DNA of 64,000 nucleotides, from NCBI RefSeq assembly GCF_011045215.1, contig NZ_CP049201.1; one strand, 5' to 3'. The position numbers and the translations under genes were made by a program. Positions 1 through 63,451 of this stretch are shown here, in pieces. The DNA comes from Escherichia coli. GTDB lineage: Bacteria; Pseudomonadota; Gammaproteobacteria; Enterobacterales; Enterobacteriaceae. The notes beneath the pieces were generated by a model that was not told where the DNA came from, made no database searches, and worked only from the letters and a program-made list of their open reading frames with translations. Position 1 is the first letter of the stretch. Every line of letters starts with the position of its first letter.

Positions 1-1
1 T

Positions 2-3500: not shown

Positions 3501-3516
3501 TTTACGGAGTTATCAC

Positions 3517-3972: not shown

Positions 3973-3975
3973 GCA

Positions 3976-4539
3976 GTGCCTGAACGCGGATTCACACTTC
4001 TGGAAATCATGCTGGTGATTTTCCTTATCGGCCTTGCCAGTGCGGGCGTGGTACAGACGTTTGCGACCGATTCTGAATCGCCCGCGAAAAAAGCGGCGCA
4101 GGATTTTCTGACTCGCTCTGCGCAGTTTAAAGACAGGGCAGTGATCGAAGGGCAGACACTCGGTGTACTAATCGACCCGCCGGGATACCAGTTTATGCAG
4201 CGTCGTCAGGGGCAGTGGTTGCCCGTTTCTGCGACCCGGTTATCGGCACAGGTTACGGTGCCGAAACAGGTGCAGATGCTGTTACAACCCGGAAGTGATA
4301 TCTGGCAGAAGGAATATACGCTGGAGCTGCAACGTCGCCGCCTGACGCTGCACGATATTGAACTGGAGCTGCAAAAAGAGGCGAAAAAGAAGACGCCGCA
4401 GATCCGTTTTTCGCCTTTTGAACCCGGTACGCCGTTTACGCTGCGCTTCTACTCGGCGGCGCAAAACGCATGTTGGGCGGTAAAACTGGCACACGATGGC
4501 GCGTTATCCCTCAATCAATGTGATGAGAGGATGCCATGA
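3976..4539 (+). CDS. gspH: Minor pseudopilin GspH
   Basis: GTG start; N-terminal GFTLLEIMLV prepilin motif; operon position. Confidence 0.8.
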   Translation: MPERGFTLLEIMLVIFLIGLASAGVVQTFATDSESPAKKAAQDFLTRSAQFKDRAVIEGQTLGVLIDPPGYQFMQRRQGQWLPVSATRLSAQVTVPKQVQMLLQPGSDIWQKEYTLELQRRRLTLHDIELELQKEAKKKTPQIRFSPFEPGTPFTLRFYSAAQNACWAVKLAHDGALSLNQCDERMP

Positions 4540-4907
4540 AGCGCGGATTTACCTTGCTGGAAGTGATGCTCGCGCTGGCGATTTTTGCGCTGGCTGCCAC
4601 GGCGGTGTTACAGATTGCCAGCGGTGCGCTGAGTAATCAGCACATTCTTGAGGAGAAAACGGTAGCTGGCTGGGTGGCTGAAAACCAGACCGCATTGCTC
4701 TACCTGATGTCCCGCGAGCAGCGGGCGGTCAGGCATCAGGGCGAGAGCGATATGGCAGGAAGCCGCTGGTACTGGCGAACCACACCGCTGAATACAGGTA
4801 ACGCGCTGCTCCAGGCGGTGGATATTGAAGTCAGCCGTCACGAAGACTTTTCGTCGGTGATTCAGTCACGACGCGCCTGGTTTAGCGCCGTGGGAGGCCA
4901 ACAGTGA
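4536..4907 (+). CDS. gspI: Minor pseudopilin GspI
   Basis: 123 aa, N-terminal GFTLLEVMLA prepilin motif; overlaps gspH stop. Confidence 0.8.
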   Translation: MKRGFTLLEVMLALAIFALAATAVLQIASGALSNQHILEEKTVAGWVAENQTALLYLMSREQRAVRHQGESDMAGSRWYWRTTPLNTGNALLQAVDIEVSRHEDFSSVIQSRRAWFSAVGGQQ

Positions 4908-5509
4908 GAAGGACTCGCGCTGGTTTCACGTTACTGGAAATGCTGGTGGCGATAGCCATTTTTGCCTCGCTGGCACTGATGGCTCAGCAGGTGACAAACG
5001 GCGTCACACGCGTGAATAGCGCCGTCGCCGGACACGATCAAAAACTAAACCTCATGCAGCAAACGATGAGTTTTCTGACCCACGATCTGACCCAAATGAT
5101 GCCGCGTCCGGTAAGGGGCGCTCAGGGCCAGCGTGAACCAGCGTTACTGGCGGGCGCTGGCGTGCTGGCGTCTGAGAGTGAAGGGATGCGCTTTGTACGC
5201 GGCGGCGTGGTTAATCCGTTGATGCGTCTGCCACGCAGTCATCTGCTCACCGTCGGTTACCGCATTCATGACGGTTATCTCGAACGGTTAGCCTGGCCGC
5301 TGACCGACGCAGCTGGCAGTGTGAAGCCAACAACGCAAAAGTTGATTCCGGCGGATTCGCTCCGTTTGCAGTTTTACGACGGCACGCGCTGGCAGGAGAA
5401 CTGGTCATCACTTCAGGCGATCCCAGTGGCGGTGCGCATGACCCTGCATTCGCCGCAATGGGGCGAGATTGAACGCATCTGGTTGTTACGCGGGCCGCAA
5501 TTATCATGA
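4904..5509 (+). CDS. gspJ: Minor pseudopilin GspJ
   Basis: 201 aa, N-terminal GFTLLEMLVA prepilin motif; translationally coupled to neighbours. Confidence 0.8.
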   Translation: MRRTRAGFTLLEMLVAIAIFASLALMAQQVTNGVTRVNSAVAGHDQKLNLMQQTMSFLTHDLTQMMPRPVRGAQGQREPALLAGAGVLASESEGMRFVRGGVVNPLMRLPRSHLLTVGYRIHDGYLERLAWPLTDAAGSVKPTTQKLIPADSLRLQFYDGTRWQENWSSLQAIPVAVRMTLHSPQWGEIERIWLLRGPQLS

Positions 5510-6483
5510 TCACCTCACCACCAAAACGCGGAATGGCACTGGTCGTGGTGCTGGTATTGCTGACGGTCATGATGATGGTAACCATCACGCTTTCCGGGCG
5601 GATGCAGCAACAACTTGGGCGAACGCGCAGCCAGCAGGAGTACCAGCAGGCGCTGTGGTACAGCGCCAGTGCAGAAAGCCTTGCGTTGAGCGCACTCAGT
5701 CTGAGCCTGAAAAATGAAAAGCGCGTGCATCTGGCACAACCGTGGGCTTCTGGCCCTCGTTTTTTCCCACTGCCGCAGGGGCAAATCGCCGTCACTCTGC
5801 GTGACGCACAGGCCTGCTTTAACCTGAATGCCCTCGCTCAGCCGACGACGGCGTCGCGTCCGCTCGCGTTACAACAATTGATTGCCCTGATCTCGCGCCT
5901 CGATGTGCCTGCTTATCGGGCCGAACTGATAGCCGAAAGCCTGTGGGAGTTTATTGATGAAGACCGCAGCGTGCAGACGCGTCTGGGCCGTGAAGACAGC
6001 GAATATCTCGCCCGCTCGGTGCCTTTCTACGCCGCCAATCAACCGCTGGCCGATATCAGCGAGATGCGCGTGGTGCAGGGAATGGACGCCGGGCTTTATC
6101 AAAAACTGAAACCGCTGGTCTGTGCGCTGCCGATGACCCGCCAGCAAATCAACATCAATACTTTAGACGTCACGCAAAGTGTGATTCTTGAGGCGCTGTT
6201 TGACCCGTGGTTAAGCCCTGTTCAGGCGCGGGCGTTATTACAACAACGTCCGGCGAAGGGCTGGGAAGATGTCGATCAGTTTCTTGCACAGCCGCTACTT
6301 GCTGACGTCGATGAGCGTACTAAAAAACAGCTAAAAACCGTCCTGAGCGTGGAAAGCAATTACTTCTGGCTGCGTTCAGATATCACCGTGAATGAGATTG
6401 AACTGACGATGAATTCGTTAATTGTCCGCATGGGCCCACAACACTTTTCTGTTATCTGGCATCAGACAGGAGAAAGTGAGTGA
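5506..6483 (+). CDS. gspK: Minor pseudopilin GspK
   Basis: 325 aa, N-terminal hydrophobic segment, size and position typical of GspK. Confidence 0.75.
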   Translation: MITSPPKRGMALVVVLVLLTVMMMVTITLSGRMQQQLGRTRSQQEYQQALWYSASAESLALSALSLSLKNEKRVHLAQPWASGPRFFPLPQGQIAVTLRDAQACFNLNALAQPTTASRPLALQQLIALISRLDVPAYRAELIAESLWEFIDEDRSVQTRLGREDSEYLARSVPFYAANQPLADISEMRVVQGMDAGLYQKLKPLVCALPMTRQQININTLDVTQSVILEALFDPWLSPVQARALLQQRPAKGWEDVDQFLAQPLLADVDERTKKQLKTVLSVESNYFWLRSDITVNEIELTMNSLIVRMGPQHFSVIWHQTGESE

Positions 6484-7658
6484 GTTCCATCCTTGAGATT
6501 TTTTTCCCACTTTGCGCCGCTAATCCCATCCGTTGGCAGCGCCGTACTCCCGACGTGGAGCACGGTATCTGGCCTGACGTTGCTGACGAACGTCTCCAAC
6601 AATGGCTGCAAACTGATGCGATTCGACTCTACATTCCCGGCGAATGGATCAGCATCTGGCAGGTTGAACTGCCTGATGTCCCTCGCAAGCAGATACCAAC
6701 TATTCTGCCCGCCTTACTGGAAGAAGAGCTGAACCAGGATATCGATGAACTGCATTTCGCCCCGTTGAAAATCGACCAGCAACTGGCAACCGTGGCAGTG
6801 ATTCACCAACAGCATATGCGCAACATTGCGCAGTGGTTGCAGGAAAACGGCATCACCCGCGCTACCGTCGCGCCAGACTGGATGTCTATTCCTTGTGGAT
6901 TTATGGCTGGCGATGCGCAACGGGTTATCTGCCGCATCGATGAATGCCGGGGATGGAGCGCCGGGCGGGCGCTGGCTCCGGTCATGTTCCGCGCCCAGCT
7001 AAATGAGCAGGATTTACCGCTTTCGCTAACCGTAGTCGGCATTGCACCGGAAGAGCTATCAGCATGGGCTGGCGCAGATGCTGAACGCCTGACCGTTACG
7101 GCTCTGCCCGCCATTACCACTTATGGCGAACCGGAAGGGAACCTGCTAACAGGGCCGTGGCAGCCTCGCGTCAGCTACCGAAAACAGTGGGCGCGCTGGC
7201 GAGTGATGATTCTGCCGATATTGCTGATTCTGGTTGCGCTGGCAGTGGAACGGGGCGTGACGTTATGGAGCGTCAGCGAACAGGTGGCGCAAAGCCGCGA
7301 CCAGGCTGAGAAACAGTTCTTAACGTTGTTCCCGGAGCAGAAGCGGATTGTGAATTTACGCTCTCAGGTGACGATGGCGCTGAAAAAATATCGCCCACAG
7401 GCCGACGATACCCGGCTGCTCGCCGAGTTGTCAGCGATAGCCAGCACCCTGAAATCAGCGTCACTTTCCGACATCGAAATGTGTGGTTTCACCTTTGATC
7501 AAAAACGCCAGACGCTTCACCTCCAGTTGCGGGCAGCAAACTTTGCCAGTTTCGACAAACTGCGTAGTGCACTGGCAACCGATTATGTTGTGCAACAGGA
7601 CGCGTTACAGAAAGAAGGTGATGCGGTTTCCGGCGGCGTAATGTTGCGGAGGAAATAA
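6480..7658 (+). CDS. gspL: Type II secretion protein GspL
   Basis: 392 aa, single central TM segment, position between gspK and gspM. Confidence 0.75.
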   Translation: MSSILEIFFPLCAANPIRWQRRTPDVEHGIWPDVADERLQQWLQTDAIRLYIPGEWISIWQVELPDVPRKQIPTILPALLEEELNQDIDELHFAPLKIDQQLATVAVIHQQHMRNIAQWLQENGITRATVAPDWMSIPCGFMAGDAQRVICRIDECRGWSAGRALAPVMFRAQLNEQDLPLSLTVVGIAPEELSAWAGADAERLTVTALPAITTYGEPEGNLLTGPWQPRVSYRKQWARWRVMILPILLILVALAVERGVTLWSVSEQVAQSRDQAEKQFLTLFPEQKRIVNLRSQVTMALKKYRPQADDTRLLAELSAIASTLKSASLSDIEMCGFTFDQKRQTLHLQLRAANFASFDKLRSALATDYVVQQDALQKEGDAVSGGVMLRRK

Positions 7659-7659
7659 C

Positions 7660-8196
7660 ATGTTACGCGATAAATTTATTCACTATTTTCAGCAATGGCG
7701 TGAACGCCAGTTAAGCCGTGGCGAACACTGGCTGGCACAACACCTGGCGGGGCGTTCTCCGCGTGAAAAGGGCATGTTACTGGCAGCGGTGGTGTTCCTG
7801 TTTAGCGTCGGATATTACGTCCTCATCTGGCAGCCGTTGAGCGAACGGATAGAACAACAGGAGACGATGTTGCAGCAGCTGGTGGCAATGAACACCCGAC
7901 TGAAGAACGCCGCGCCGGATATTATTGCAGCGCGAAAATCTGCCACAACAACGCCTGCGCAGGTATCGCGGGTCATCAGTGACAGTGCTTCCGCGCACTC
8001 GGTGGTCATCAGGCGGATAGCCGAGCGTGGGGAGAATATTCAGGTCTGGATAGAACCTGTGGTGTTTAATGACCTGCTGAAATGGTTAAACGCACTGGAT
8101 GAAAAATATGCGCTGCGGGTGACACAAATTGATGTCAGTGCTGCTGAGAAGCCTGGGATGGTGAATGTGCAGCGGCTGGAGTTTGGACGGGGGTAA
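7660..8196 (+). CDS. gspM: Type II secretion protein GspM (K-12 YghD-like)
   Basis: 178 aa, N-terminal TM helix, last gene of operon; sits 148 bp from the tRNA-Phe remnant, matching my recollection of the K-12 yghD-pheV spacing. Confidence 0.75.
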   Translation: MLRDKFIHYFQQWRERQLSRGEHWLAQHLAGRSPREKGMLLAAVVFLFSVGYYVLIWQPLSERIEQQETMLQQLVAMNTRLKNAAPDIIAARKSATTTPAQVSRVISDSASAHSVVIRRIAERGENIQVWIEPVVFNDLLKWLNALDEKYALRVTQIDVSAAEKPGMVNVQRLEFGRG

Positions 8197-29204: not shown

Positions 29205-29302
29205 CTGCCACATCTGATTTCGGGTGTGTTTCGGCAAGGTTGTTCAGTAAGGCATTCCTTCGTAAAATCAGCCTGTTTTTTGCACGACGGAAACCGGCAG
29301 CC

Positions 29303-32152
29303 ATGAAAATCTGTCTTTATCATACCCTGAATCCAGAGATCATCCCGGGCTATAAAAAATTTGCACAGGCCATTGCGGCTGATAACTTTGTTCAGGCTGA
29401 TGTTCGTAAAATTGATACCAATCTTTACCGTGCACGGCTCAGTATCCGGGATCGATTGCTGTTTTCGCTGTATCGTTATCATGGTGAAACTGTCTGCCTT
29501 GTACTGGAATATATTCGCAATCATGCCTATCACACTTCACGTTTTCTTCGCAAAAATGTGGTTATTGATGAAGACTGCGTACAACAACAACCTGTGCCGG
29601 ATCCTGTTGATATAGCGACTGAAACACTGACGTATATCAATCCGTCTCACGGGCGTTTTCATCGTCTGGATAAAATGTTGTCCTTTGATGATGAGCAGCA
29701 GGCGTTGTACGAACATCCGCTACCGCTGGTGATTGTGGGATCTGCAGGGAGTGGTAAGACGGCGCTGGTACTGGAAAAAATGAAGCAGGCCGCGGGTGAT
29801 ATACTGTATCTCAGCCTCTCCACATTTCTGGTGGAAAAAGCACGAACGCTTTATAACGCGTCGGGGGAAGGGAGTGATGCGCAGAATATTGACTTTCTGT
29901 CACTGACGGAATTCCTGGAAACCCTGCGCATTCCGGAAGGCCGGGAGGTGACCTTCAGGGCATTCAGCGACTGGCTGCCCCGCAACAGGACCACCGTTGC
30001 GCTGGGGTCTGCCCATACCCTGTATGAGGAGTTCCGGGGTGTGATTGGTGCGGCCGTTTCCGGCAACGGACCACTGTCCCGGGAGGTGTATCTGTCGCTG
30101 GGGGTACGGCAGTCGCTCTACAGTATGGATGATCGCCCGACGGTCTATGCCCTGTTCGAACGTTATACGGCATGGCTGAAACAGTCGCGTCAGTATGACA
30201 GTAATCTGCTCAGTCATCAGTACCTGCCGCTGGCAGAGCCCCGTTACGATGCCATTTTTGTCGATGAAGTTCAGGATATGACGCCTGTTCAGTTGCAACT
30301 GGTACTGAAAACATTGCGTCATCCCGGCCAGTTTTTGCTTTGTGGTGATGCCAGTCAGATTGTTCATCCCAGCTTTTTCTCATGGAGTTCACTTAAGAGC
30401 CTTTTTTTCCGGCAACACCAGGGGAACAATGCTGCCATTAATATCCTGCAGGCGAATTACCGTAACGGGCACCATATCACCGCACTGGCTAACCGTCTGC
30501 TGAGACTCAGACAGGCCCGGTTCAGCGCCATTGATCGGGAAAGCCACCATTTCGTCAGAAGCTGTGGTCAGACGGAAGGCGCAGTCCGGTTACTGGAAGA
30601 CCGGGAAGAAAACCGACAGGAGCTGAACACCAAAACCTCACGTTCGAATCGGGTGGCGGTCATTGTGATGCATCCGGAACAGAAAGTACAGGCACGTTGC
30701 TGGTTCAGTACACCGCTGGTTTTTTCAGTTCAGGAGGTTAAGGGGCTGGAATACGAAACGGTGATCCTCTACAACATGGTCAGCGGTGTCCGGCAGGCGT
30801 TTGATGATATCTGTGAGGGGATTTTTCTGGCGGATCTTGAGGGTGAGTCCCGTTATTCCCGTCCGCGGGACAGGCAGGATCGTTCAGCGGAAATCTACAG
30901 GTTTTTTATCAATGCGCTGTATGTTGCGTTCACCCGTGCCACGCACAACGTGTATCTTGTTGAACAGCAGGTGGCGCATCCGTTGTGGCGCCTGCTTGCG
31001 CTCACGCATCAGGAAGAGCAACTGAATCTGCAGGAGGAGATTTCCAGCCGTGATGAGTGGCAGAAAACTGCACATTTGCTTGAGAAACAAGGGAAGCAGG
31101 AGCAGGCGGATACCATCCGCAGCCGGCTCCTGCAGCAGTCTGAAGTACCGTGGCACATCATTACCGCAGAGGAAGCCCGGCAGTGGAAAGAACAGATCCT
31201 CGCAGGCACGGCCAGTAAAGCCACACAACTGCAGGCGCTGGAGTACAGTCTGATTTACTCCCTGTTTCCGCTGTATAATGCGCTGTACCGGGAAGATTTT
31301 AAGCCCACCAGACAGTCCAGGGCGAAGAGTCTGCTGTTGCTGGAGCAGAAATATTTCCGGCCATACTCGGTGAATAACCCGGTTGCGGTGTTGCGGGATA
31401 TTGAGCGTTATGGTGTTGATCACCGCTCGCCGTTTAATCTTACTCCGCTGATGTCAGCAGCCCGGGCAGGCAACATTGCACTGGTTCAGTTACTGCTTGA
31501 CCGTGGTGCAGATCCCTTGCTAATCGGTAATGACGGGCTGGCAGCTTATCATCACGTCCTGTCAGCGGCGGTCAGTACGCCCCGTTATGCGCAACAGAAA
31601 AGTGCGCAGTTGTATACCCTGCTGAGACCAGAAAGTCTCTCACTGCAGGTGGAAGAACGGCTCATCAAACTGGACAACCGGCAGATGGCAATGTTTCTGG
31701 TGCTCCTGATGCAGGCACTGTTCTTCACGCATCTGGGGAGTGCTCTGGCCTTTTCGGAAGCTTTCAGTGCGGCACGACTGGCAGAGTGTGTGGCTCACCT
31801 TCCTGAAGCGTTGTTGCCGGAGCGCCGCAAAAGAAGGAATTATATCAGCAGCCAGCTTTCTCAACATGAGGTTAACAGCAAAAACCCTTATGGAAAAAAG
31901 CTCTTTCTGAGACTGAATCATGGGCAGTATATTCTTAATCCGGGGCTTAAAATCAGACAGGGTGACGTGTGGTGTGCGGTTTATGAGTTGCAGTCACCGG
32001 AAGATCTCGGTCATGATTTGCAGACTTATCTGCAGGACATGTCTCCGGAATTCGTGGAGATTCTGGGGGGGAGGAAGGATTTTTACAAACACAGTGAGGA
32101 GGTTGTCGGATACTGGGTGGAGGTGATTCGTCGTGCTGGTCTGAAAGCGTGA
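29303..32152 (+). CDS. Large SF1 (UvrD/RecD-like) helicase with unknown N-terminal domain and C-terminal ankyrin-like repeats
   Basis: Walker A GSAGSGKT, Walker B FVDEVQD, motif III GDASQ, motif V KGLEYETV, motif VI VAFTRAT; ankyrin-like LTPLMSAARAGNIALVQLLLDRGADPLLIGNDG; ATG at 29303 (ORF track starts at a TTG at 29240). Confidence 0.7.
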   Translation: MKICLYHTLNPEIIPGYKKFAQAIAADNFVQADVRKIDTNLYRARLSIRDRLLFSLYRYHGETVCLVLEYIRNHAYHTSRFLRKNVVIDEDCVQQQPVPDPVDIATETLTYINPSHGRFHRLDKMLSFDDEQQALYEHPLPLVIVGSAGSGKTALVLEKMKQAAGDILYLSLSTFLVEKARTLYNASGEGSDAQNIDFLSLTEFLETLRIPEGREVTFRAFSDWLPRNRTTVALGSAHTLYEEFRGVIGAAVSGNGPLSREVYLSLGVRQSLYSMDDRPTVYALFERYTAWLKQSRQYDSNLLSHQYLPLAEPRYDAIFVDEVQDMTPVQLQLVLKTLRHPGQFLLCGDASQIVHPSFFSWSSLKSLFFRQHQGNNAAINILQANYRNGHHITALANRLLRLRQARFSAIDRESHHFVRSCGQTEGAVRLLEDREENRQELNTKTSRSNRVAVIVMHPEQKVQARCWFSTPLVFSVQEVKGLEYETVILYNMVSGVRQAFDDICEGIFLADLEGESRYSRPRDRQDRSAEIYRFFINALYVAFTRATHNVYLVEQQVAHPLWRLLALTHQEEQLNLQEEISSRDEWQKTAHLLEKQGKQEQADTIRSRLLQQSEVPWHIITAEEARQWKEQILAGTASKATQLQALEYSLIYSLFPLYNALYREDFKPTRQSRAKSLLLLEQKYFRPYSVNNPVAVLRDIERYGVDHRSPFNLTPLMSAARAGNIALVQLLLDRGADPLLIGNDGLAAYHHVLSAAVSTPRYAQQKSAQLYTLLRPESLSLQVEERLIKLDNRQMAMFLVLLMQALFFTHLGSALAFSEAFSAARLAECVAHLPEALLPERRKRRNYISSQLSQHEVNSKNPYGKKLFLRLNHGQYILNPGLKIRQGDVWCAVYELQSPEDLGHDLQTYLQDMSPEFVEILGGRKDFYKHSEEVVGYWVEVIRRAGLKA

Positions 32153-53500: not shown

Positions 53501-53770
53501 ATGCGATTAATACCACCCGTGACAAGAACAGTGTATAATATTAATAACCTACATTTGTTTGCAGATGGTTGTAAGATTATAAAAAACAGCCTGAAGGAAC
53601 AAAGGGAACAATGTGGTCAGATAGCGTTTTCAATAAATGAAATAGCACGAATAACGGATATGAATATCCGCCATGTCTGTGTATGCTTAAGTATTCTGGT
53701 TTGCGCTGAGGTGATGAGCTGTATTACCAATGAATGTGGGGAAAGAAAGTGGTTTCTTGTAACGAAATAA
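53501..53770 (+). CDS. PapI/FaeA-like small winged-helix regulator (putative)
   Basis: ~89 aa, GGAGG RBS; C-terminus ...RKWFLV like the PapI-family ...YWFLK ending. Confidence 0.45.
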   Translation: MRLIPPVTRTVYNINNLHLFADGCKIIKNSLKEQREQCGQIAFSINEIARITDMNIRHVCVCLSILVCAEVMSCITNECGERKWFLVTK

Positions 53771-53806: not shown

Positions 53807-54022
53807 ATGCATTTAAAATATGATGGTTGTGAAGTAATCATTAAATTTATGGCGGAACGTGATACAACATTATTACCATTAACTACACGACAGATTGCGG
53901 ATGGTTGTGCCATGTCTGTTTATGCTGCGCGTTATTATTTACAGAAACTCAGCAAGCTGCATGTTGTTGGGTCTGACAGAGTCGGTAAAGGTAGTGCTGT
54001 TCGGTGGTATTTGCAGATATAA
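53807..54022 (+). CDS. PapI/FaeA-like small winged-helix regulator
   Basis: 71 aa; VYAARYYLQKL...AVRWYL matches the PapI block DYQARYYLLLL...ATYWFL. Confidence 0.55.
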   Translation: MHLKYDGCEVIIKFMAERDTTLLPLTTRQIADGCAMSVYAARYYLQKLSKLHVVGSDRVGKGSAVRWYLQI

Positions 54023-54176: not shown

Positions 54177-55019
54177 TTGTATATGACTATGGCTGATGCG
54201 CGTCATTTACCTGTATTAATGTATCACCATATCAGTAATAATCCAGGGCTGGTGACGCTTTCACTCCGGACTTTCCGTGAGCAGATGCAGTGGCTGGCTG
54301 AAAATGGCTGGAAAACTGTTTCGGCAGCTGAAATGGAATTCTTTTATTGTGGCGGGAAACTGCCACGCAAAAGCGTCATGCTGACCTTTGATGACGGCTA
54401 CCTGGATAACTGGTTTTATGCCTTTCCGGTGTTACAGGCATTTGGTCTCCGGGCTCATATCTTTCTTGTCACGGGGCTTATCGGTGATGGTCCCGCCCGG
54501 CAACATGAAGAAAGCGGGGGGCGTCATATGTTTTCTCACCGGGAATGCGAGACCCTGATTGCACAGGGGCGGGCTGATGATGTCATGCTGCGCTGGTCTG
54601 AGGTCAGGGAAATGAGCCGGAGCGGGCTGGTCGAGTTTCATCTGCACACACATACCCACCGTCGCTGGGATCTGCTGGATAACGTCCGTGAGCCGTCCGT
54701 CTTTCTTGAGTCCGATATTCTTCTCGGACAGGCGCGAATGAGGCAAATGACCGGTTCATGCAGTCGTCATTTATGCTGGCCGGAGGGGTATTACAATCCG
54801 GACTATATCAGGGTGGCGGAGAAACTGGGATTCACCCACCTCTACACCACTGAGCGGCGGATGAATTCACCGGTGGCGGGTCCCCGGCGTATCGGGCGTA
54901 TCAGTACAAAGGAGCGTGAACATTCCGGCTGGCTGAAGCGCCGTCTCTTTTATTACACCACTCCGTTTTTTTCATCGCTTCTGGCCCTTCATAAGGGGCC
55001 CCGGCTGAATGATGACTGA
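54177..55019 (+). CDS. Polysaccharide deacetylase-family protein (Shf-like)
   Basis: NodB-type motifs (LMYHHI, MLTFDDGY); followed by glycosyltransferase and VirK-like genes as in shf-capU-virK loci. Confidence 0.7.
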   Translation: MYMTMADARHLPVLMYHHISNNPGLVTLSLRTFREQMQWLAENGWKTVSAAEMEFFYCGGKLPRKSVMLTFDDGYLDNWFYAFPVLQAFGLRAHIFLVTGLIGDGPARQHEESGGRHMFSHRECETLIAQGRADDVMLRWSEVREMSRSGLVEFHLHTHTHRRWDLLDNVREPSVFLESDILLGQARMRQMTGSCSRHLCWPEGYYNPDYIRVAEKLGFTHLYTTERRMNSPVAGPRRIGRISTKEREHSGWLKRRLFYYTTPFFSSLLALHKGPRLNDD

Positions 55020-55022
55020 GAG

Positions 55023-56126
55023 GTGGTGATGAAAATTCTTTATACCGAATCCTCTCCCAATATTGGTGGTCAGGAGTTGCAGGCGCTGGCTCAGATGGCT
55101 GCAATGCAGCGTGCCGGGCACAGTGTCATGCTGGCATGTCGCGAAAACAGCCGGATAGCCGCGGAAGCGGTCAGGCAGCAGACTGCGGTTACATATATTC
55201 CTTTCAGGAACAGTCTGCATTTTTCATCAGTCTGGCGACTCCGTCGTCTTGTTCTGACTTTCCGGCCGGATATGGTGGTGTGTCACAGCGGACATGACAG
55301 TAACACAGTGGCTCTGACCCGGGCCACGCTTACCGGAGGGGCGGGCAGGTTCAGTATTGTCCGTCAGAAGACATATCTGACCCGAAAGATGGAGGTGTTT
55401 TCGCTGAATCACTTCTGTGATGCCGTTGCTGTCCCCGGACAGGCGATGAAGGAGGCGCTGCAGGCTGCGGGATGTACAAACACCATCCGGGTGGTTTCAC
55501 CGGGATTTGATTTTGATGCAATCCGGGAAGCCATGAGCATGCCCCTGCCGGAACATGTTCGTGAATGGCTGGAAGCGAGAGCACCTCATCCGGTCATTGT
55601 TCAGATCGGAATGTTACGTCCGGAGAAAGGCCTGGATTTCATGCTGAAAACACTCTTTCATCTGAAACGTGAGGGAGGCCAGTTTCACTGGCTGATAGTC
55701 GGTGGCGGGCGTCCGGAAGAGGAGCGCCTGTTACGCCGTAAAATTCATGCGCTGGGGATGGAAGGGGGTGTACTGATATGCGGTTATCTTACGCCGGTAT
55801 ATCCGCTCTACAGGGTGGCTTCCCTGATGGTGATGCCTTCCACCTGTGAATCATTTGGTATGGCTGCAGTGGAGGCTGCTGCATGTGGTGTGCCGGTAAT
55901 GGCCAGTAATACAGGAGGGTTATCTTCCGTCATTCATCATGAGCGGACCGGTATTCTGCTCCCGCCGGATAACCGGCAGGCCTGGCTGGAAGCCCTGCGT
56001 GCGTACCTGTCCGCACCGGCCGGGTTCGCGGAAATGGCGGCCATGGCCCGCAGGGATGTGATGAGTCGTTTCAGTATGGAGGTAACCCTTGACAGGCTGT
56101 TGTCGCTGGGCTGTCTGCCCTTCTGA
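55023..56126 (+). CDS. GT4-family glycosyltransferase (CapU/RfbU-like)
   Basis: 367 aa; C-terminal GT-B donor-binding region (ESFGMAAVEAAACGVPVMASNTGG). Confidence 0.7.
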   Translation: MVMKILYTESSPNIGGQELQALAQMAAMQRAGHSVMLACRENSRIAAEAVRQQTAVTYIPFRNSLHFSSVWRLRRLVLTFRPDMVVCHSGHDSNTVALTRATLTGGAGRFSIVRQKTYLTRKMEVFSLNHFCDAVAVPGQAMKEALQAAGCTNTIRVVSPGFDFDAIREAMSMPLPEHVREWLEARAPHPVIVQIGMLRPEKGLDFMLKTLFHLKREGGQFHWLIVGGGRPEEERLLRRKIHALGMEGGVLICGYLTPVYPLYRVASLMVMPSTCESFGMAAVEAAACGVPVMASNTGGLSSVIHHERTGILLPPDNRQAWLEALRAYLSAPAGFAEMAAMARRDVMSRFSMEVTLDRLLSLGCLPF

Positions 56127-56207
56127 TGTTGCCTGTACAGGAGACGGGTATTTTGTTTTTGAGTTATGGACTGTGTTATCTGATATCTGACATACCATCT
56201 GAATATT

Positions 56208-57149
56208 ATGAGTAATCTGTCTGTTATTTCGCTTGTTGTGAAACTGATGACTGGCCGTACTTTCCACAGAGGGAAGTGGGAGGACAGAAAGTTTCGTTAT
56301 AAATTTCTGCTGCGTTGTTGTTGTCATCCTCTGATCACAACCCATTATTTTCGTGCCCTGTGTGAACTGAGCGATATCGACGATCTTCTTGAGGTCAACC
56401 CGACCTTACCGGCCAAGATTCACCGTCCCTATCTCTTCCGGAACAGTCGCACCGGATTCCGGGTACAGGCAGTTCTTGACCATTATCATCTTATCCGGAG
56501 CCTTCCGCAGGAGGTCAGGCGAATGCTGAACGTCAGCCGGGAAACATCGCTTGTCCGCACCGAAGGGAAGGACGGCAGGTGGCTGGATATCAGTTGTTCC
56601 CCCTGTGGCTTTGACCGCGAGGGGGAGCTGATGCTGATACTGCGTTTTAATGGTGAGGTTATCACCCGTATTTCCTTCACACTTCTTTACTGGCAGGGGC
56701 ACCGGATGGTGTTTGTCGGGGGATTGCAGGGGCCTGCAGCGGGGACGGGCACAGCGATTATCCGGGAGGCCACCCGTGCCTGTTATGGCCTGTTTCCGCG
56801 CCGTCTGCTCTGTGAGGCACTGAGTGTGGTGGCAGGGATGTGCGGAGCCGGGGGGATAGTGGCTGTCAGTGAGGACAATCATGTGATGCGGCAGTTGCGT
56901 TATTTTTACCAGAAAAAGGGCCGGTTTGTTGCCCGTTACAGTGAGTGCTGGAAGTCTGCCGGAGGAAAATATTTTGATGGGTTCTGGTACCTGCCTCCGG
57001 AACTACCCCGTAAAGATGCCGGTGAAATCCCTGCAAGAAAACGGGCTGAGTACAGAAGGCGAAATGCCCTGCTTGATGAGGTACGGCGAGGGCTGATGGC
57101 TGCACAGCAGAATGGCTGTGATTTCAGAAACACAATAACGCTGATGTAA
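56208..57149 (+). CDS. VirK/YbjX-family protein (DUF535-like)
   Basis: 313 aa; size and position after the deacetylase and glycosyltransferase; family recalled, not verified. Confidence 0.55.
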   Translation: MSNLSVISLVVKLMTGRTFHRGKWEDRKFRYKFLLRCCCHPLITTHYFRALCELSDIDDLLEVNPTLPAKIHRPYLFRNSRTGFRVQAVLDHYHLIRSLPQEVRRMLNVSRETSLVRTEGKDGRWLDISCSPCGFDREGELMLILRFNGEVITRISFTLLYWQGHRMVFVGGLQGPAAGTGTAIIREATRACYGLFPRRLLCEALSVVAGMCGAGGIVAVSEDNHVMRQLRYFYQKKGRFVARYSECWKSAGGKYFDGFWYLPPELPRKDAGEIPARKRAEYRRRNALLDEVRRGLMAAQQNGCDFRNTITLM

Positions 57150-57154
57150 CCAGG

Positions 57155-58108
57155 ATGATGATGAAAAGCTGTATTCAGGCGGCCCTGATGGCTGCTGTTC
57201 TGCCGGGGGTATTCAGTCACCAGGCGGGGGCTGCTGAAGTGTCTGCTGCTCCGGAAGTCAGACGTGAACAGTCTGTACTGCCGTTTTTCCGGGAGCTGGC
57301 AGAAGGTTATGAACTGCCGGAACCATTTGGTGTTAATCTGAATTATATGCAAATCCGGCAGGGGATATCGGTGGACAGTATCCGGTTTTCCGGGTTACAC
57401 CTGGGCAGACTTCCTCTGGATAATATTGTACATATTGATGCCGGAAAGACCCGACAGAAAAGTCATACCGGAACACTCCGGTTTGATGCATGGGTGTTTC
57501 CTTTTATGAATCTGTATGGGCTTCTGGGAAAAACAACCGGACAGTCTGTATCAGATATCCGGGTCCGAACACCTCTGTTTACCGGCGGGGCGTTTCCGGG
57601 GGCCGGTACACAGAACCTGAAGTTCCGTCTGGATTTTCAGGGAACCACATATGGTGTCGGCACCACCCTGGTGGGCGGGATGAATAACTGGTTCACCTCG
57701 CTGGATGCCAATTATACGCAGACACGCTTTGATATTCTTGATGGTCATATTGATACTGTCACATTCTCACCCCGGGTGGGGTATTACTTTGATGTCCCTT
57801 CGGTACCGGTACTGCAGAGTTCTGCGGGCAGAATGAGTGTATGGGTCGGGGGGATGTACCAGGATGTTGAACAGCGCTTCAGGGGTAAACTGAATGACCT
57901 GAATATGCCATCACCTGCACTGCAGGCGGGGTTGTCACAACTGAATAAAACGGGGGATGCGCGTTTTGATGTCAGGCAGCATCTGAAAAAACCGTGGAAC
58001 ATGCTGGCTGGCATACGCTATGACCCCAGCCGGCACTTCAGTCTTATCGCCGAAGCGGGGTTTGAAAAGCGGAAAAGTTTTTTTGTTTCCGGTGAATACC
58101 GGTTCTGA
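57155..58108 (+). CDS. Putative outer-membrane beta-barrel protein
   Basis: Signal peptide, alternating beta-strand pattern, C-terminal aromatic residue (...GEYRF). Confidence 0.55.
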   Translation: MMMKSCIQAALMAAVLPGVFSHQAGAAEVSAAPEVRREQSVLPFFRELAEGYELPEPFGVNLNYMQIRQGISVDSIRFSGLHLGRLPLDNIVHIDAGKTRQKSHTGTLRFDAWVFPFMNLYGLLGKTTGQSVSDIRVRTPLFTGGAFPGAGTQNLKFRLDFQGTTYGVGTTLVGGMNNWFTSLDANYTQTRFDILDGHIDTVTFSPRVGYYFDVPSVPVLQSSAGRMSVWVGGMYQDVEQRFRGKLNDLNMPSPALQAGLSQLNKTGDARFDVRQHLKKPWNMLAGIRYDPSRHFSLIAEAGFEKRKSFFVSGEYRF

Positions 58109-58305
58109 ACCTGGAGAAGACAGCCCGGTGGATACGGCGATAATATAATTATCGCCGTATCAGGATAAATACCATGATTAGATTCAGCGGGTGCACAAAA
58201 AAGAAATAATGCCGGGCTGACGATAATAAAATTTAATATATTAATATCTTTGTGGAATATTTGTTGCAATGTGTATGTTATTCCCGCATGCACAGGAGAT
58301 TATCT

Positions 58306-58557
58306 ATGTGTGACAAAACCATGAAACGCAGGGACAATACCGCATTATATCAGGATGACTGTGAAGCACTGCTCCTCTGGATGAAATTCCGGGAGGATAA
58401 ATATGGTGAAGTCTTGTTTCGTGTTATTGATATTGCGTACGGACTGGATATGTCTGTGCGCCAGTGTTGTATCTGTCTGAATTTTTTGTATGAAGCCGGA
58501 CTGGTGGATTACGACGAAAATAATAACAGGTTGTCCAGACAGTGGTTTCTTGTCTGA
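58306..58557 (+). CDS. PapI/FaeA-like small winged-helix regulator (putative)
   Basis: ~83 aa from the ATG at 58306 (AGGAG RBS); paralogous to 53501 (DMSVRQCCICLNFL...QWFLV). Confidence 0.45.
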   Translation: MCDKTMKRRDNTALYQDDCEALLLWMKFREDKYGEVLFRVIDIAYGLDMSVRQCCICLNFLYEAGLVDYDENNNRLSRQWFLV

Positions 58558-58649
58558 CAAAGACAGGACGGAAATCTGATATCCGGTAATATCTGAAACG
58601 GCATTCATATATTACTGCGGAGTGAATTTCATAACCGGAATAATGCAGT

Positions 58650-59795
58650 ATGGGATATATTACTGACAGACAACAGAAAATAAAATGGTTGTTATTTTTG
58701 TTGTTATGGTGTTGTCAGGCGCAGGCCGCACTTCCGCTTCCTTTATGGCTGGACGGGAAGGAAATGACAACGAGTGCCTGGCCGGTTATGCCTCCGTTAT
58801 CCCCCCCGGAGGGGTTACGGGCCTGCTGTGCGTTTGGGTATGACCTGGGGGTGAGGGTGCCGTGGCTCCGTACACCATTGCCATTCTTTCATCTGGACAA
58901 TGTGGTGGAGGCCGGCAGTACCGGGGGACACCATTACAACGACAGTTTTGTTTCCGGCATGTTGTCTCTGACAGGGGGCGGAAGAGAGCATAACGGTATC
59001 ATTTTCACCACGCAGGGGGGATTTGTTGATACGGCGCATGTCCGTGATACGGCGGATATGACGGTGTTTATTTTTACCCGTCTGTGGCCACGTCTGGGGC
59101 AGGCGTTTGTGTTGTCTCCGGGCAGAGATGAACTGGCACAACGGCGGCTGGTTTTCCGGGCATTCACTCCCCCGTCTTCCGTCCGGGACCGTTATGTGCT
59201 GGCCGCGGAAATATCAGCCCGTCTGGCATACCAGCTGGCGGTATGGCATGAAATTGCACAGTGGTACGGCTTCGAATCCGTACCGGGTTATCCTGAAACT
59301 GTGTCGGCATTTTCACCGGAGGATCTGTGGTCCAATCTTCTGGGGGCAAGAGTGGCCCTCTCTCTTATCTTCAGCGGACAGACGGCAGACAGGCGAATGT
59401 ATGAAACGGCCATGCAGAATGCGCTGAAACAGGTGCTGGTTCATCTGGGAGGTGGCGCGGTGTCCCGTACCCGTTTTCAGCTCCGTATGCTGGACAGGGT
59501 GTGGTGGAACAGCCGGTGTCTTCTGCCGGACAAGTGGCTGGTGATAAAGCGCAATTATGATGTTGATGCGGACCGGCTTCCCGTATCTGTTCCGGGGGGC
59601 GATATGAAGCCACTGCGCCTGTCGCTCCCTCTCAGACCGGAAGCCGCGGTGCTGGCGGAATTACAGCTCTGGCCCGGACAGGACATGAAGCGTCTTCCGG
59701 TACCGGAAGGGTATTACACCGGGAAGGATTTTGCGGGGCTGGCGTCCCGGGCCCGGGCCGGGGACAGTGTCTCCCGTGACAGATTCTGTCCGTGA
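58650..59795 (+). CDS. Hypothetical exported protein
   Basis: 381 aa; N-terminal hydrophobic signal-like segment; no family recognised. Confidence 0.45.
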   Translation: MGYITDRQQKIKWLLFLLLWCCQAQAALPLPLWLDGKEMTTSAWPVMPPLSPPEGLRACCAFGYDLGVRVPWLRTPLPFFHLDNVVEAGSTGGHHYNDSFVSGMLSLTGGGREHNGIIFTTQGGFVDTAHVRDTADMTVFIFTRLWPRLGQAFVLSPGRDELAQRRLVFRAFTPPSSVRDRYVLAAEISARLAYQLAVWHEIAQWYGFESVPGYPETVSAFSPEDLWSNLLGARVALSLIFSGQTADRRMYETAMQNALKQVLVHLGGGAVSRTRFQLRMLDRVWWNSRCLLPDKWLVIKRNYDVDADRLPVSVPGGDMKPLRLSLPLRPEAAVLAELQLWPGQDMKRLPVPEGYYTGKDFAGLASRARAGDSVSRDRFCP

Positions 59796-59829
59796 GAGGG
59801 TGTGTTTTGGGTTGCAGGGAGTGGATGTT

Positions 59830-60708
59830 ATGAACATTCAGGTGGAACATCACAGGGGAGCATGGCGTCTCATTTTACTTCTGGCAGGTATTGTCATACC
59901 GGTTTACGGGTACAGTCATGAACTGTCAGGCACTTATGCCAGAATATTAAGTATGCATTTTTCGGATGACATCAGTGCTTCCGGATTGCGGACAGAGGGA
60001 GGGGGGAAATATTCCCGCTGGACTGTTCCCTGGCACAGCGAATGTCTGTATGACACGGGGATGGTCTGCTCCGGGGTGTACCTCAGGGGAAGTTATATTG
60101 ACCTGAAAGGGGATGTTGATGATGGTGCCGTGGTTCACTGGCGGTCATATGGCACGCTTGTGGGGACAGATGTCACCGTCAGGTTGTCTGAACATGTTTC
60201 AGTCAGGGGAGGTCTGGGCGTGGGATATGCCCGGGTTCGCAACATGAGTCGCGGGATGGAAGGTGATGAAAATTATGAAGAGGTGCTGGGGTGGGAGCGA
60301 AAAAATGCCCTGATTGTTTCCCCCGAAATCAGCAGTACGATAACGTCCGGTAATTTTACCCTGAGTCCGGGTCTCTCATTTTTATCCCTGCGTGAATTCT
60401 CATCATCCCGTCATGATATTGGTTCGCACGCGGGAAGTTATTCCGTCAGGATGACTTATACGTTCCGGGATGTGTTCCGTGTGATGGGGCGCGGAAGTGA
60501 TGTCATTGTGGAAAACAATACCGGAGGTTTTTACGGTCCGGGCTGGAAAGAAGACCTGGGATTCAGTCTGGTGAATGAGACGCAACTGTTGTTCAGTATT
60601 CCCTTCTGTGTTGGTGGTCATGTTTTCTCTCTGCGTGCCGGGCCGGGCTTCATAAAGGGGAACGGGGGAGTCAGAGGGGTGTCATTTTCTTTTGGTCTGA
60701 AAACATGA
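59830..60708 (+). CDS. Hypothetical exported beta-rich protein (possible outer-membrane protein)
   Basis: ~292 aa from the ATG at 59830; signal-like N-terminus; Gly/Ser/Tyr-rich alternating pattern. Confidence 0.4.
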   Translation: MNIQVEHHRGAWRLILLLAGIVIPVYGYSHELSGTYARILSMHFSDDISASGLRTEGGGKYSRWTVPWHSECLYDTGMVCSGVYLRGSYIDLKGDVDDGAVVHWRSYGTLVGTDVTVRLSEHVSVRGGLGVGYARVRNMSRGMEGDENYEEVLGWERKNALIVSPEISSTITSGNFTLSPGLSFLSLREFSSSRHDIGSHAGSYSVRMTYTFRDVFRVMGRGSDVIVENNTGGFYGPGWKEDLGFSLVNETQLLFSIPFCVGGHVFSLRAGPGFIKGNGGVRGVSFSFGLKT

Positions 60709-60728: not shown

Positions 60729-61568
60729 ATGAATGATAAAAAGACAGGGACGGCGCTGATACGGAAAATGACCATTGACAGGATTATCGAATATATCGAA
60801 CTTCATCTTGAAAGTGGTAAACGGATGAGCATTCATTCACTGAGTGCTTATTCCGGTTACTGCCGCAGACATCTGCAGCGTATTTTTCTGCTGGAGACGG
60901 GAATGCGGCTGGGCGAATATATTCGTCGCAGGCGACTGAGTCGGGCTGCCCTGCTCTGTCGCCTGTCGTTACGTGGGTTTCAGGATATTGCCTGTAGTCT
61001 GGGATTTGATTCCCAGCAGACATTTAACCGTGAATTCAGGAAAACAGCCGGCGTGACGCCCGGACAGTACCGCAGCCAGCCGGAATGGCGGCTTTTGCCG
61101 CTGGCAGGTCGTGCCGGCATCTCTTTTTCTGTTCCGGTCCCGGAGAGGGTTCATCTTCCGGAAGGCCGTATTGTGGGACGACCACTGACGTTTTCCGGCC
61201 GTATACATGAGGTCCGGGATAACGGGGCGGCGGCATTTTCCGAAAGTGTGTTTGCCTGTCAGCAGGAGGCTCAGTGGTTGGTGGTGACGGCAATAACGCC
61301 GGTGGGAGGCAGGAAAGGGGATTATGAGGTCCGTTGTGGTGTGGGCGCACCGGATAACCCGTGCGGAAACGTCTTCTCATGGGCCGAGGGGGATTACCTG
61401 TCTGTCACGTTTGAGACCACAACGACCACCCATGCGGCCCGTGCAGATTACATTTATATGAACATCCTGCCCGCTCATGGAGTTGTCCGTACGCCCGGGG
61501 TGGACATACTCGTCTTTCGTTACCATGAGGAGCGGGTGTTCTGTACGCTTTACATCCCGGTCAGTTAA
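60729..61568 (+). CDS. AraC-family regulator, Rob-like (N-terminal HTH, C-terminal GyrI-like domain)
   Basis: 279 aa; N-terminal AraC HTH pair; C-terminal ~150 aa effector-binding-like domain. Confidence 0.65.
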   Translation: MNDKKTGTALIRKMTIDRIIEYIELHLESGKRMSIHSLSAYSGYCRRHLQRIFLLETGMRLGEYIRRRRLSRAALLCRLSLRGFQDIACSLGFDSQQTFNREFRKTAGVTPGQYRSQPEWRLLPLAGRAGISFSVPVPERVHLPEGRIVGRPLTFSGRIHEVRDNGAAAFSESVFACQQEAQWLVVTAITPVGGRKGDYEVRCGVGAPDNPCGNVFSWAEGDYLSVTFETTTTTHAARADYIYMNILPAHGVVRTPGVDILVFRYHEERVFCTLYIPVS

Positions 61569-62200: not shown

Positions 62201-63451
62201 TTGTTAATGAGAAAAGCAGAAGTGAATGACTCTTTCATCACAAAAATCCTGACAGGTAATAACGTTCTGCGTGCTGCAATTGCCCGCATTGAGTGGGTTT
62301 TTGAAACATTTCCGTCGGTATGTCTGTCTTTTTCAGGTGGAAAGGATTCCACCGTACTGTTCCATCTTGTGGCAAATGTGGCCCGCAGGAAAAAACGTCG
62401 ATTCTCTGTACTGTTCATTGACTGGGAAGCCCAGTACCAGTGTACCGTTGAACATATTCAGAAGATGCGGAATATGTACGGGGATGTGACGGAGACCTTT
62501 TACTGGGTGGCACTTCCCCTGACCACGGTAAACGGTGTCTCACAGTTTCAGCCGGAGTGGATATGCTGGGAACCTGGTGTGACCTGGGTCCGTCAGCCAC
62601 CGGAAGAGGCCATTACGGATATGGCGTATTTTCCCTTCTACCGGTATGCCATGACCTTTGAAGAATTTGTTCCGGCATTTTCTTCCTGGTTTGCCGGTAA
62701 CCGGTGCGGTGTGGCGATACTGACTGGTGTCCGTGCGGATGAATCCCTCAACCGCTTTATGGGACTGGTGTCTCAGCGTAAGCTCAGATATGCCGATGAT
62801 AAACCCTGGACCACGGCATCACCTCAAGGGTTTTACTACACCATGTATCCATTGTATGACTGGAAAGCCCGTGATATCTGGATATATAACGCCAGAACCC
62901 GTGCCATCTACAATCCCCTGTATGACCTGATGTACCGTGCCGGTGTGCCGTTACGTAACATGCGTGTCTGTGAGCCTTTTGGCCCGGAACAACGTAAGGG
63001 GCTGTGGCTTTACCATGTTCTGGAGCCGGAAACCTGGGCCAGGATGTGTGAGCGGGTGTCAGGGGCTGCCAGTGGGGCGCGTTATGCCAATGAAAGCGGT
63101 GCCTATTTTGCCCTGCGTAAACGTATATCAAAACCGGCTCATCATACCTGGCGCAGCTATGCGATGTTCCTGCTGGATGTGATGCCGGAAAGAACGGCAG
63201 AACATTACCGTAACAAAATTGCTGTCTACCTGCGCTGGTATCAAACGCGGGGCTTCCCGGACGATATCCCGGATGAACAGGAAAATGACCTGGGCTGCCG
63301 GGATATTCCGTCCTGGCGACGTATCTGTAAGACACTCATAAAGAATGATTTCTGGTGCCGGACCCTCTCCTTCAGCCCGAACAAACCCCGGCACTATGAA
63401 CGTTACCTGCAGCGTATGAAAGAAAGGAGGAAGGAATGGGGGATTCTGTGA
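62201..63451 (+). CDS. PAPS-reductase-family (PP-loop) protein, IbrA-like
   Basis: PP-loop motif SFSGGKDS near the N-terminus; ~415 aa; stop overlaps the start of the downstream ParB-like gene; start TTG at 62201 or ATG at 62207. Confidence 0.7.
   Translation: MLMRKAEVNDSFITKILTGNNVLRAAIARIEWVFETFPSVCLSFSGGKDSTVLFHLVANVARRKKRRFSVLFIDWEAQYQCTVEHIQKMRNMYGDVTETFYWVALPLTTVNGVSQFQPEWICWEPGVTWVRQPPEEAITDMAYFPFYRYAMTFEEFVPAFSSWFAGNRCGVAILTGVRADESLNRFMGLVSQRKLRYADDKPWTTASPQGFYYTMYPLYDWKARDIWIYNARTRAIYNPLYDLMYRAGVPLRNMRVCEPFGPEQRKGLWLYHVLEPETWARMCERVSGAASGARYANESGAYFALRKRISKPAHHTWRSYAMFLLDVMPERTAEHYRNKIAVYLRWYQTRGFPDDIPDEQENDLGCRDIPSWRRICKTLIKNDFWCRTLSFSPNKPRHYERYLQRMKERRKEWGIL

Follow-up and report, generated by a model that had tools for sequence, protein, structure and literature searches.

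A diverged shf-family locus of Escherichia coli with a conserved outer-membrane module at its 3' end

We analysed a 64-kb window of Escherichia coli DNA (the whole stretch taken from contig NZ_CP049201.1, assembly GCF_011045215.1) and focused on a cluster of six genes for a Shf-like deacetylase, a GT4 glycosyltransferase, a VirK-like protein, an outer-membrane beta-barrel of 317 amino acids (OMP317), a DUF4056 protein and a second barrel of 292 amino acids (P292). On balance, the cluster is likely to be a horizontally mobile envelope-remodelling locus, a diverged member of the shf/ecf operons with a three-gene outer-membrane module in its 3' slot, and on similar odds its two halves work together. 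This view is carried by the relationship of the first three genes to the shf operons, by the recurrence of the six-gene order in distant loci and by the predicted properties of the downstream proteins.

The first three genes and the shf family

The six open reading frames (ORFs), from shf to P292, were intact and lay on the + strand, with boundaries unchanged from an earlier, sequence-only reading of the window. All coordinates are positions in the 64-kb window, and all genes listed here and below are on the + strand.

54177..55019, +, CE4 deacetylase like Shf, SfPgdA and Ecf1 (Pfam Polysacc_deac_1, PF01522, E 5e-23)
55023..56126, +, GT4 glycosyltransferase, relative of CapU, RfbU (WabB), SfGtr4 and Ecf2 (Pfam GT4 families, E 6e-31)
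56208..57149, +, VirK/YbjX (DUF535) protein (Pfam DUF535, E 3e-75)
57155..58108, +, OMP317, exported outer-membrane beta-barrel of 317 amino acids with about 10 long strands
58650..59795, +, exported DUF4056 protein of the CapCone-DUF4056 family, Lipocone superfamily (Pfam DUF4056, E 2e-105)
59830..60708, +, P292, exported 12-stranded outer-membrane barrel of 292 amino acids, a very rare family

In RefSeq, shf starts at the ATG at 54189. The gap from the shf stop to the GT4 gene is 3 nt, that from the virK stop to OMP317 is 5 nt and that from P292 to the following araC gene is 20 nt. GC content is even, at 51-57%, from shf through araC, compared with 39% in faeA and 37-40% in the distal fimbrial genes. 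No equivalog-level NCBIfam assignment was obtained for any gene of the cluster.

The sequence-only reading had proposed a shf-capU-virK order. BLASTP against the pINV plasmid of Shigella flexneri (L003; L numbers denote the loci compared) showed identities of 69% for Shf (274 of 280 amino acids), 52% for GT4 (361 amino acids) and 46% for VirK (292 amino acids). The pINV counterparts have the same order and strand, and the alignments are essentially full-length. The proposed order was thus borne out by full-length relatives at 46-69% identity in matching order and strand, not by generic family-level similarity without synteny. Against pO157, the deacetylase is 67.5% identical to Ecf1 and GT4 is 53% identical to Ecf2. 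Relatives of Shf were found by tblastn on more than 1100 plasmids, mainly of Escherichia and Shigella. Beyond the near-identical set, plasmids of Salmonella and Citrobacter carry the nearest relatives, and identities are highest in S. salamae (up to 77% for Shf and 65% for GT4, and 65% for the plasmid-borne VirK).

The translations retain the TFDDG and HxHTH metal/catalytic motifs in Shf and the E-x7-E motif (ESFGMAAVE) in GT4. Export signals were absent from Shf, GT4 and VirK and present in OMP317, DUF4056 and P292; the N-terminus of Shf carries no hydrophobic segment. These findings make it highly likely that the window genes constitute a shf-family locus.

More specific assignments were also considered. 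GT4 was rejected as BshA, MshA or GlcNAc-PG-synthase, with NCBIfam scores far under the cutoffs and a match at family level only. Shf was rejected as a PgaB/IcaB deacetylase of poly-N-acetylglucosamine (PNAG), scoring 99 and 54 bits against NCBIfam cutoffs of 322 and 248 and having no export signal. No PNAG-type synthase was found beside Shf among the window ORFs.

Comparison with known shf-type loci

The Shigella operon on pINV/pWR100 has the order shf-rfbU-virK-msbB2, in which rfbU is also named wabB or sfgtr4. Its first three genes match the window in order and strand, and the theme of envelope modification is common to both. The window, however, has neither msbB2/lpxM nor a recognisable PhoP box, both of which pINV possesses, and adds OMP317, a small ORF, DUF4056 and P292 after virK, followed by an AraC regulator. 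The divergence between the two is far too great for one allele. Homologues of LpxM (queries from pINV and pO157), CptA and Ail were not found by tblastn across the window, in agreement with the earlier statement that the cluster lacks an msbB2-like gene.

The ecf operon of pO157 (ecf1-ecf2-cptA-lpxM; L002) has the deacetylase and GT4 pair in common with the window. It lacks virK, which is replaced by cptA (a phosphoethanolamine transferase) with lpxM next, and it lacks the OMP, DUF4056 and P292 genes. It has been suggested that this operon modifies lipopolysaccharide (LPS) for survival in cattle and in water or the environment (PMC2811833), and the window locus shows a ruminant association like that proposed cattle role.

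The gene after virK varies among the other loci: it is lpxM in pINV and S. Give (L006), a gene for an Ail/Lom barrel in S. salamae (L004) and a gene for an AraC regulator in plasmid CP057208 (L007). These comparisons show that the operon has at its 3' end an exchangeable slot that accommodates envelope-modifying genes. At the other end, shf-type loci repeatedly sit just 3' of differing chaperone-usher fimbrial operons.

Enteroaggregative E. coli (EAEC) strain 042 carries a chromosomal shf-rfbU-virK-msbB2 locus as well as a plasmid (pAA2) shf-capU-virK copy without msbB2 (PMC2808357), and its shf copies are 93% identical in DNA to the Shigella genes (PMC7355660). The window proteins, in contrast, are just 46-69% identical and are accompanied by an extra outer-membrane module. 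Because msbB2 is missing from the pAA2 copy too, this gene is no strict criterion of the family. Chromosomal siting and the absence of msbB2 are therefore both already known in E. coli, from EAEC 042. What differs from the known shf loci is the extended locus whose last slot is a mobile OMP-Lipocone-OMP module.

Recurrence of the six-gene order

The order shf-GT4-virK-OMP-DUF4056-P292 was found intact in three more diverged loci (L102, L103 and L104), whose proteins are 48-73% identical to those of the window and whose genes overlap or nearly touch. The OMP and DUF4056 genes are directly adjacent in all three, with no 83-amino-acid ORF between them; the FaeA-like 83-amino-acid ORF at the OMP317/DUF4056 junction is peculiar to the window lineage. 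In four more loci the order is kept in decayed form; one of them (L014) has shf-GT4-OMP-DUF4056-P292 with virK missing.

The other decayed versions are as follows. In Escherichia sp. E4742 (L010/L011), shf and virK are reduced to stubs, followed by OMP-DUF4056, P292 with a frameshift, and araC. An E. coli locus (L015) has shf-GT4-virK followed by the N-terminus of OMP317 fused to P292, and plasmid CP057208 (L007) keeps a 32-amino-acid remnant of OMP317 between virK and araC. Together with the shf genes, the downstream genes form a conserved unit, and the maintenance of their order at 35-50% protein divergence favours a functional link over chance insertion.

In L014 (positions 1-7632; contig label Citrobacter freundii, UNVERIFIED_ORG), the block lies directly 3' of a PgaC/IcaA/NodC-like processive GT2 gene, and a UDP-GlcNAc 2-epimerase-like gene and an Acyl_transf_3 gene are also upstream. 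In this context, some versions of the locus may serve a polysaccharide pathway.

The outer-membrane barrels

Structure models of OMP317 and P292 showed a closed antiparallel barrel in each case, and both proteins have a signal peptide. OMP317 ends in a C-terminal aromatic residue. Together with the export signal of DUF4056, these features confirm the earlier description of three exported proteins downstream of virK, the first of them a barrel.

P292 is very rare. Of 5.8 billion proteins searched, those that matched fell into 7 clusters, every one from Escherichia or Citrobacter, and an exhaustive profile search yielded 33 representatives among 1.84 billion. Close relatives are essentially confined to Escherichia/Citrobacter shf-type loci; distant full-length relatives are solitary and occur in unrelated contexts, and so they are uninformative on function.

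Several candidate identities for the two barrels were rejected. As an autotransporter, P292 had no Pfam match at E <= 0.01 and only fold-level likeness at 7-11% identity; about 30 residues separate its signal peptide from the first strand, and a passenger domain is missing. Its likeness to LpxR/PagL-type lipid A enzymes was at fold level alone, with no Pfam match. OMP317 was not accepted as an omptin protease, since its identity to OmpT is 4% and a Pfam Omptin match is lacking. BLASTP gave nothing significant between either barrel and the Omp85-like gene of the Salmonella triad described below. A sequence search for relatives of solved structure (OMP317, P292 and the DUF4056 profile) returned nothing usable.

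The DUF4056 protein

The Pfam match of the window protein spans 264 of 266 positions of the DUF4056 profile. All invariant residues of a 16-sequence alignment are kept (G124, H130, R132, D133, D136, H200 and E201), as are the further invariants S219-xx-S222-xx-D225 (S219-A-F-S222-P-E-D225) and C59-C60. In the same alignment, homologues from Photorhabdus, Xenorhabdus and Enterobacillus have a lipobox instead of a plain signal peptide. In a recent preprint, CapCone-DUF4056 is a soluble family of the Lipocone superfamily, predicted to be lipid-head-group enzymes (Burroughs & Aravind, bioRxiv 10.1101/2025.01.14.632903), and the Lipocone prototype TelC is a lipid II phosphatase (same preprint). The window protein agrees with the CapCone motif described there, having a Gly six residues before the helix-2 His and S-xx-S-xx before the helix-4 Asp. 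A linkage of the family to OMP barrels or to shf loci is not mentioned in the passages of the preprint consulted. The window DUF4056 is thus predicted from its sequence to be a secreted, periplasmic enzyme acting on lipid head groups. The sequence-only reading had called the downstream proteins exported and of unknown function. The first part stands; it had missed both the conserved unit with shf and the Lipocone membership of DUF4056. In the literature, we found for the function of DUF4056 just the Lipocone classification, one mention as a type VI secretion system (T6SS) candidate and one figure label.

In both Escherichia sp. E4742 (L010, 4975-5796 and 11327-11965) and L104 (8098-8736), the OMP-DUF4056 block is flanked by genes for DsbA-like thioredoxin-fold proteins. 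DUF4056 itself has an invariant Cys-Cys pair.

The chromosomal OMP-Omp85-like-DUF4056 triad

Salmonella and Edwardsiella carry an operon in which an OMP gene and a gene for an Omp85-family barrel are followed by DUF4056 as the third gene. OMP317 matches the first gene of the Salmonella triad by BLASTP. Its identity to the triad OMP is 54% in Salmonella and 47% in Edwardsiella, and that of DUF4056 is about 55%. We scanned one genome per species, found 263 relatives and tabulated the neighbourhoods of the best 80 loci (Enterobacterales species). The results were as follows, each as a share of these best 80 loci.

OMP317 - Omp85-like - DUF4056 triad: 69
OMP317 - DUF4056: 5
Omp85-like - DUF4056: 2
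DUF4056 alone: 4

An shf, GT4, virK, P292 or araC gene adjoined DUF4056 in none of them. The triad, with a POTRA-less Omp85-family member, was seen at L012:5846-9128, at L013:5792-9134 and in 69 of the loci L019-L098, in hosts including Salmonella, Citrobacter, Edwardsiella, Serratia, Photorhabdus, Xenorhabdus and Providencia. The relative order of OMP317 and DUF4056 is the same as in the window. The triad differs in having the Omp85-family barrel in the middle and in lacking P292 and shf/GT4/virK neighbours, whereas in the window the Omp85-like gene is absent and the 12-stranded P292 is added after DUF4056. Our literature search found no functional study of the triad.

The triad bears on whether DUF4056 might be a secreted effector or toxin that leaves the cell via a translocator-type barrel (Omp85-like in the triads; in the window, P292 with its autotransporter-like fold) and targets the lipids of competing or host cells, as is proposed for other CapCone Lipocones. 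The folds of the partner barrels do fall into classes employed in protein translocation. CapCone-1 and CapCone-2 relatives are presented as toxin tips borne by polymorphic toxins in the Lipocone preprint (bioRxiv 10.1101/2025.01.14.632903), and a Salmonella DUF4056 ORF has been flagged as a candidate T6SS effector (PMC11669294). However, DUF4056 is conserved almost universally in Enterobacterales as a single chromosomal copy, a pattern typical of housekeeping genes of the envelope and not of polymorphic toxins, and no candidate immunity gene is evident. The Sec-type signal peptide, or the lipobox in some homologues, suggests retention in the cell envelope. A toxin role is therefore very improbable.

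Proposed function of the locus

For a diverged shf/ecf locus that remodels the envelope, the following steps can be proposed. By analogy with RfbU/WabB, GT4 would transfer an N-acetylhexosamine (HexNAc) onto the LPS core or a lipid acceptor in the cytoplasm, and Shf may then de-N-acetylate the added sugar to a cationic amine. VirK, by analogy with its Shigella counterpart, would act in the cytoplasm as a GNAT-like factor and make the outer-membrane barrier tighter. Once exported to the periplasm or outer membrane, DUF4056 might act there on a lipid head group linked by a phosphoester, as its Lipocone class and its linkage suggest, and OMP317 and P292 could be its membrane partners or conduit. 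The net outcome would be an altered surface charge and permeability. This specific chemistry (HexNAc addition, de-N-acetylation and the head-group reaction) is tentative, and we hold it to be rather doubtful in its particulars.

A comparable pair acts in Klebsiella, in which the glycosyltransferase WabH adds GlcNAc to the LPS core and the deacetylase WabN makes it glucosamine (GlcN); the likeness to GT4 and Shf is one of mechanism only. RfbU/WabB modifies heptose III of the R3 LPS core by attaching alpha-1,7-GlcN(Ac), an activity known for the pO157 and Shigella enzyme only (PMC2808357; bioRxiv 10.1101/536201). Shigella mutants in SfPgdA and SfGtr4 are sensitive to lysozyme and to neutrophils, and the two proteins interact (PMC7355660). 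Shigella VirK, a GNAT-like protein of the cytoplasm, is required for outer-membrane impermeability and cationic-peptide resistance (PMC12562796).

The steps can be joined into one inside-to-outside pathway of all six genes. Shf, GT4 and VirK would make an amino-sugar-modified lipid or LPS at the inner membrane, and a barrel-docked DUF4056 would process its head group, a step that may be transfer, trimming or release at the outer membrane. We regard a single pathway of this kind as unlikely.

The sequence-only reading had suggested a surface modification or a biofilm function. In an exopolysaccharide or biofilm locus, Shf would de-N-acetylate a PNAG-like polymer as IcaB or PgaB does, GT4 would help to build the polymer and the barrels would export or anchor it. 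Shf does show family-level NCBIfam matches to the PgaB N-terminal domain (E 2e-28) and to IcaB (E 1e-14), with scores far under the curated cutoffs, an EAEC shf mutant is reported to be biofilm-defective and Shigella mutants show altered biofilm (PMC7355660, PMC2808357), and the L014 relative adjoins the PgaC/NodC-like processive GT2 and Acyl_transf_3 genes. However, a signal peptide is missing from Shf, and neither a polysaccharide synthase nor an exporter is encoded in the window. For these reasons, modification of the LPS or lipid surface is preferred as the better supported part of the suggestion, and the biofilm part is weaker and improbable as an account of this locus.

The downstream genes could also be an unrelated insertion, in which the OMP-DUF4056 module hitch-hikes beside shf-GT4-virK without sharing its function. 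The module also exists independently, as a triad without shf genes nearby, in 69 of the best 80 loci, and the deletion derivatives L007, L015 and L010 retain one half or the other. A weak terminator-like hairpin after GT4 and AT-rich, promoter-like gaps before the small ORF and before DUF4056 fit it as well. On the other side, at least five lineages have retained the gene order despite a 35-50% protein difference, with overlapping or few-nucleotide junctions. The gap between virK and OMP317 is 5 nt, close P292 relatives are essentially confined to these loci and GC content is uniform. An unrelated insertion is likewise improbable.

Several points weigh against a joint envelope-remodelling function of the locus. 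With shf genes beside DUF4056 in 0 of the best 80 loci, the DUF4056-OMP317 module works independently of shf, and the loss of one half in L007, L015 and L010 makes the coupling dispensable rather than obligatory. Since GT4 is just 52% identical to its pINV counterpart, its donor and acceptor may differ from those of WabB. Roles given to Shf in the literature conflict, being a peptidoglycan deacetylase in Shigella and a biofilm factor in EAEC (PMC7355660, PMC2808357). The P292 model is of moderate confidence (predicted local distance difference test score 65) and was built from 7 sequences. No PhoP box with <=2 mismatches was found by a motif scan within 330 bp upstream of shf, whereas pINV has a 1-mismatch box, so that PhoP control of the pINV type has been dropped and is not to be assumed. 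Finally, the functions given here for all proteins of the locus are predictions.

Regulatory and neighbouring genes

The genes flanking or interspersed with the six-gene cluster are the following.

53480..53770, +, 96-amino-acid ORF, paralogue of the 83-amino-acid ORF; possible FaeA/PapI-like winged-helix regulator of uncertain gene status
53807..54022, +, small regulator of the FaeA/PapI family, directly 5' of shf (Pfam FaeA, E 4e-10)
58306..58557, +, 83-amino-acid small ORF between OMP317 and DUF4056, distant FaeA/PapI-like paralogue
60729..61568, +, AraC-family regulator with an N-terminal helix-turn-helix (HTH) of the MarA/SoxS/Rob class (Pfam HTH_18 at residues 39-116)
62201..63451, +, IbrA-like protein of the PAPS-reductase family (DUF3440), 94% identical to its L007 homologue

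The 96-amino-acid ORF gave no Pfam or NCBIfam match and is 30% identical to the 83-amino-acid ORF by BLASTP (E 1e-12). The latter, which has an AT-rich stretch on its 5' side, matches the 71-amino-acid FaeA-like protein at E 3e-4 and has a counterpart annotated as hypothetical in plasmid A of the bovine E. coli strain C5; there, the counterpart of the gene at 53807..54022 is annotated as a FaeA/PapI family regulator. The AraC regulator matches NCBIfam RobA at E 4e-32, under the curated cutoff. A FaeA gene is in the equivalent position in L007, L015 and L104, and AraC homologues 36-37% identical to that of the window are in the equivalent position in L007, L010 and L104. The FaeA/PapI-like and Rob-class AraC regulators, rather than PhoP, probably couple expression of the locus to the chaperone-usher fimbriae next to it.

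At 50579-53483, three successive ORFs of 314-319 amino acids with a GC content of 37-40% close the upstream chaperone-usher fimbrial operon. They have signal-like N-termini, show no BLASTP similarity to one another and are annotated as 'hypothetical protein' in the C5 plasmid. They may be novel tip adhesins.

On the right-hand side, an IbrB-like gene (ParB N-terminal) lies 3' of the IbrA-like gene and extends past the window end at 64000. In C5, the pair is annotated as 'phosphoadenosine phosphosulfate reductase' and 'IbrB-like', and a YadA-family adhesin gene follows a few kb beyond it in plasmid A. The pair is also the right-hand neighbour of the shf-type loci L007, L015, L017 and L104. It is a recurrent neighbour and is a candidate only for part of the functional unit.

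Genomic setting and mobility

Positions 1-8196 of the window hold gspE-gspM/yghD of the type II secretion system (T2SS-beta) locus, and a CP4-57-like island with AbiEii, CbtA/YeeU and YfjI genes is next to the gsp genes. The gsp region and the island occur on E. coli chromosomes at only 94-95% identity, a level that points to a divergent allele or to a divergent lineage of Escherichia. The T2SS gsp flank and the island agree with the earlier description of the cluster as chromosomal; it is otherwise plasmid-borne. The part of the window from about 25.9 to 64 kb is about 99% identical to C5 plasmid A. Among 5426 complete E. coli genomes, the block at 54.2-61.6 kb was found on 0 chromosomes and 2 plasmids, and at about 99% identity it was found on 7 plasmids in PLSDB, carried by cattle and sheep isolates of E. 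coli and E. fergusonii. The mobility of the module is clear, and its chromosomal placement here is consistent with the left flank. A tRNA scan of the window found none, so the attachment site of the island is not visible.

E. coli 23CRST030 (L008) has the island backbone (AbiEii, CbtA/YeeU, antirestriction, YfjI) in common with positions 1-25083 of the window, and past YfjI it carries IS1-qacE-sul1 in place of the fimbrial and shf cargo. Within the plasmid-like part, positions 29240-32152 encode a 970-amino-acid ORF, an ankyrin-repeat protein according to the C5 plasmid annotation. It is followed by genes for an MFS transporter, an M20 aminoacylase, a 774-amino-acid HTH protein and an EAL-domain protein. 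In bovine E. coli RM8082, part of this ankyrin/MFS/EAL block lies on the chromosome as well.

Implications

The shf/ecf operons are long known yet poorly understood envelope modifiers of Shigella, EAEC and O157, and they have been linked to the ability to withstand lysozyme, cationic peptides and neutrophils and to persist in cattle. The repeated coupling of the outer-membrane module to LPS-core-type enzymes is a concrete lead to the substrate of DUF4056 and to the function of the triad. If the six-gene pathway were true, it would give a first substrate and physiological role for the OMP-Omp85-DUF4056 triad of most Enterobacterales, and it would be the first outer-membrane-linked Lipocone pathway. 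The locus and its chaperone-usher fimbriae travel between plasmids and a chromosomal island, which bears on the colonisation of livestock by E. coli and E. fergusonii.

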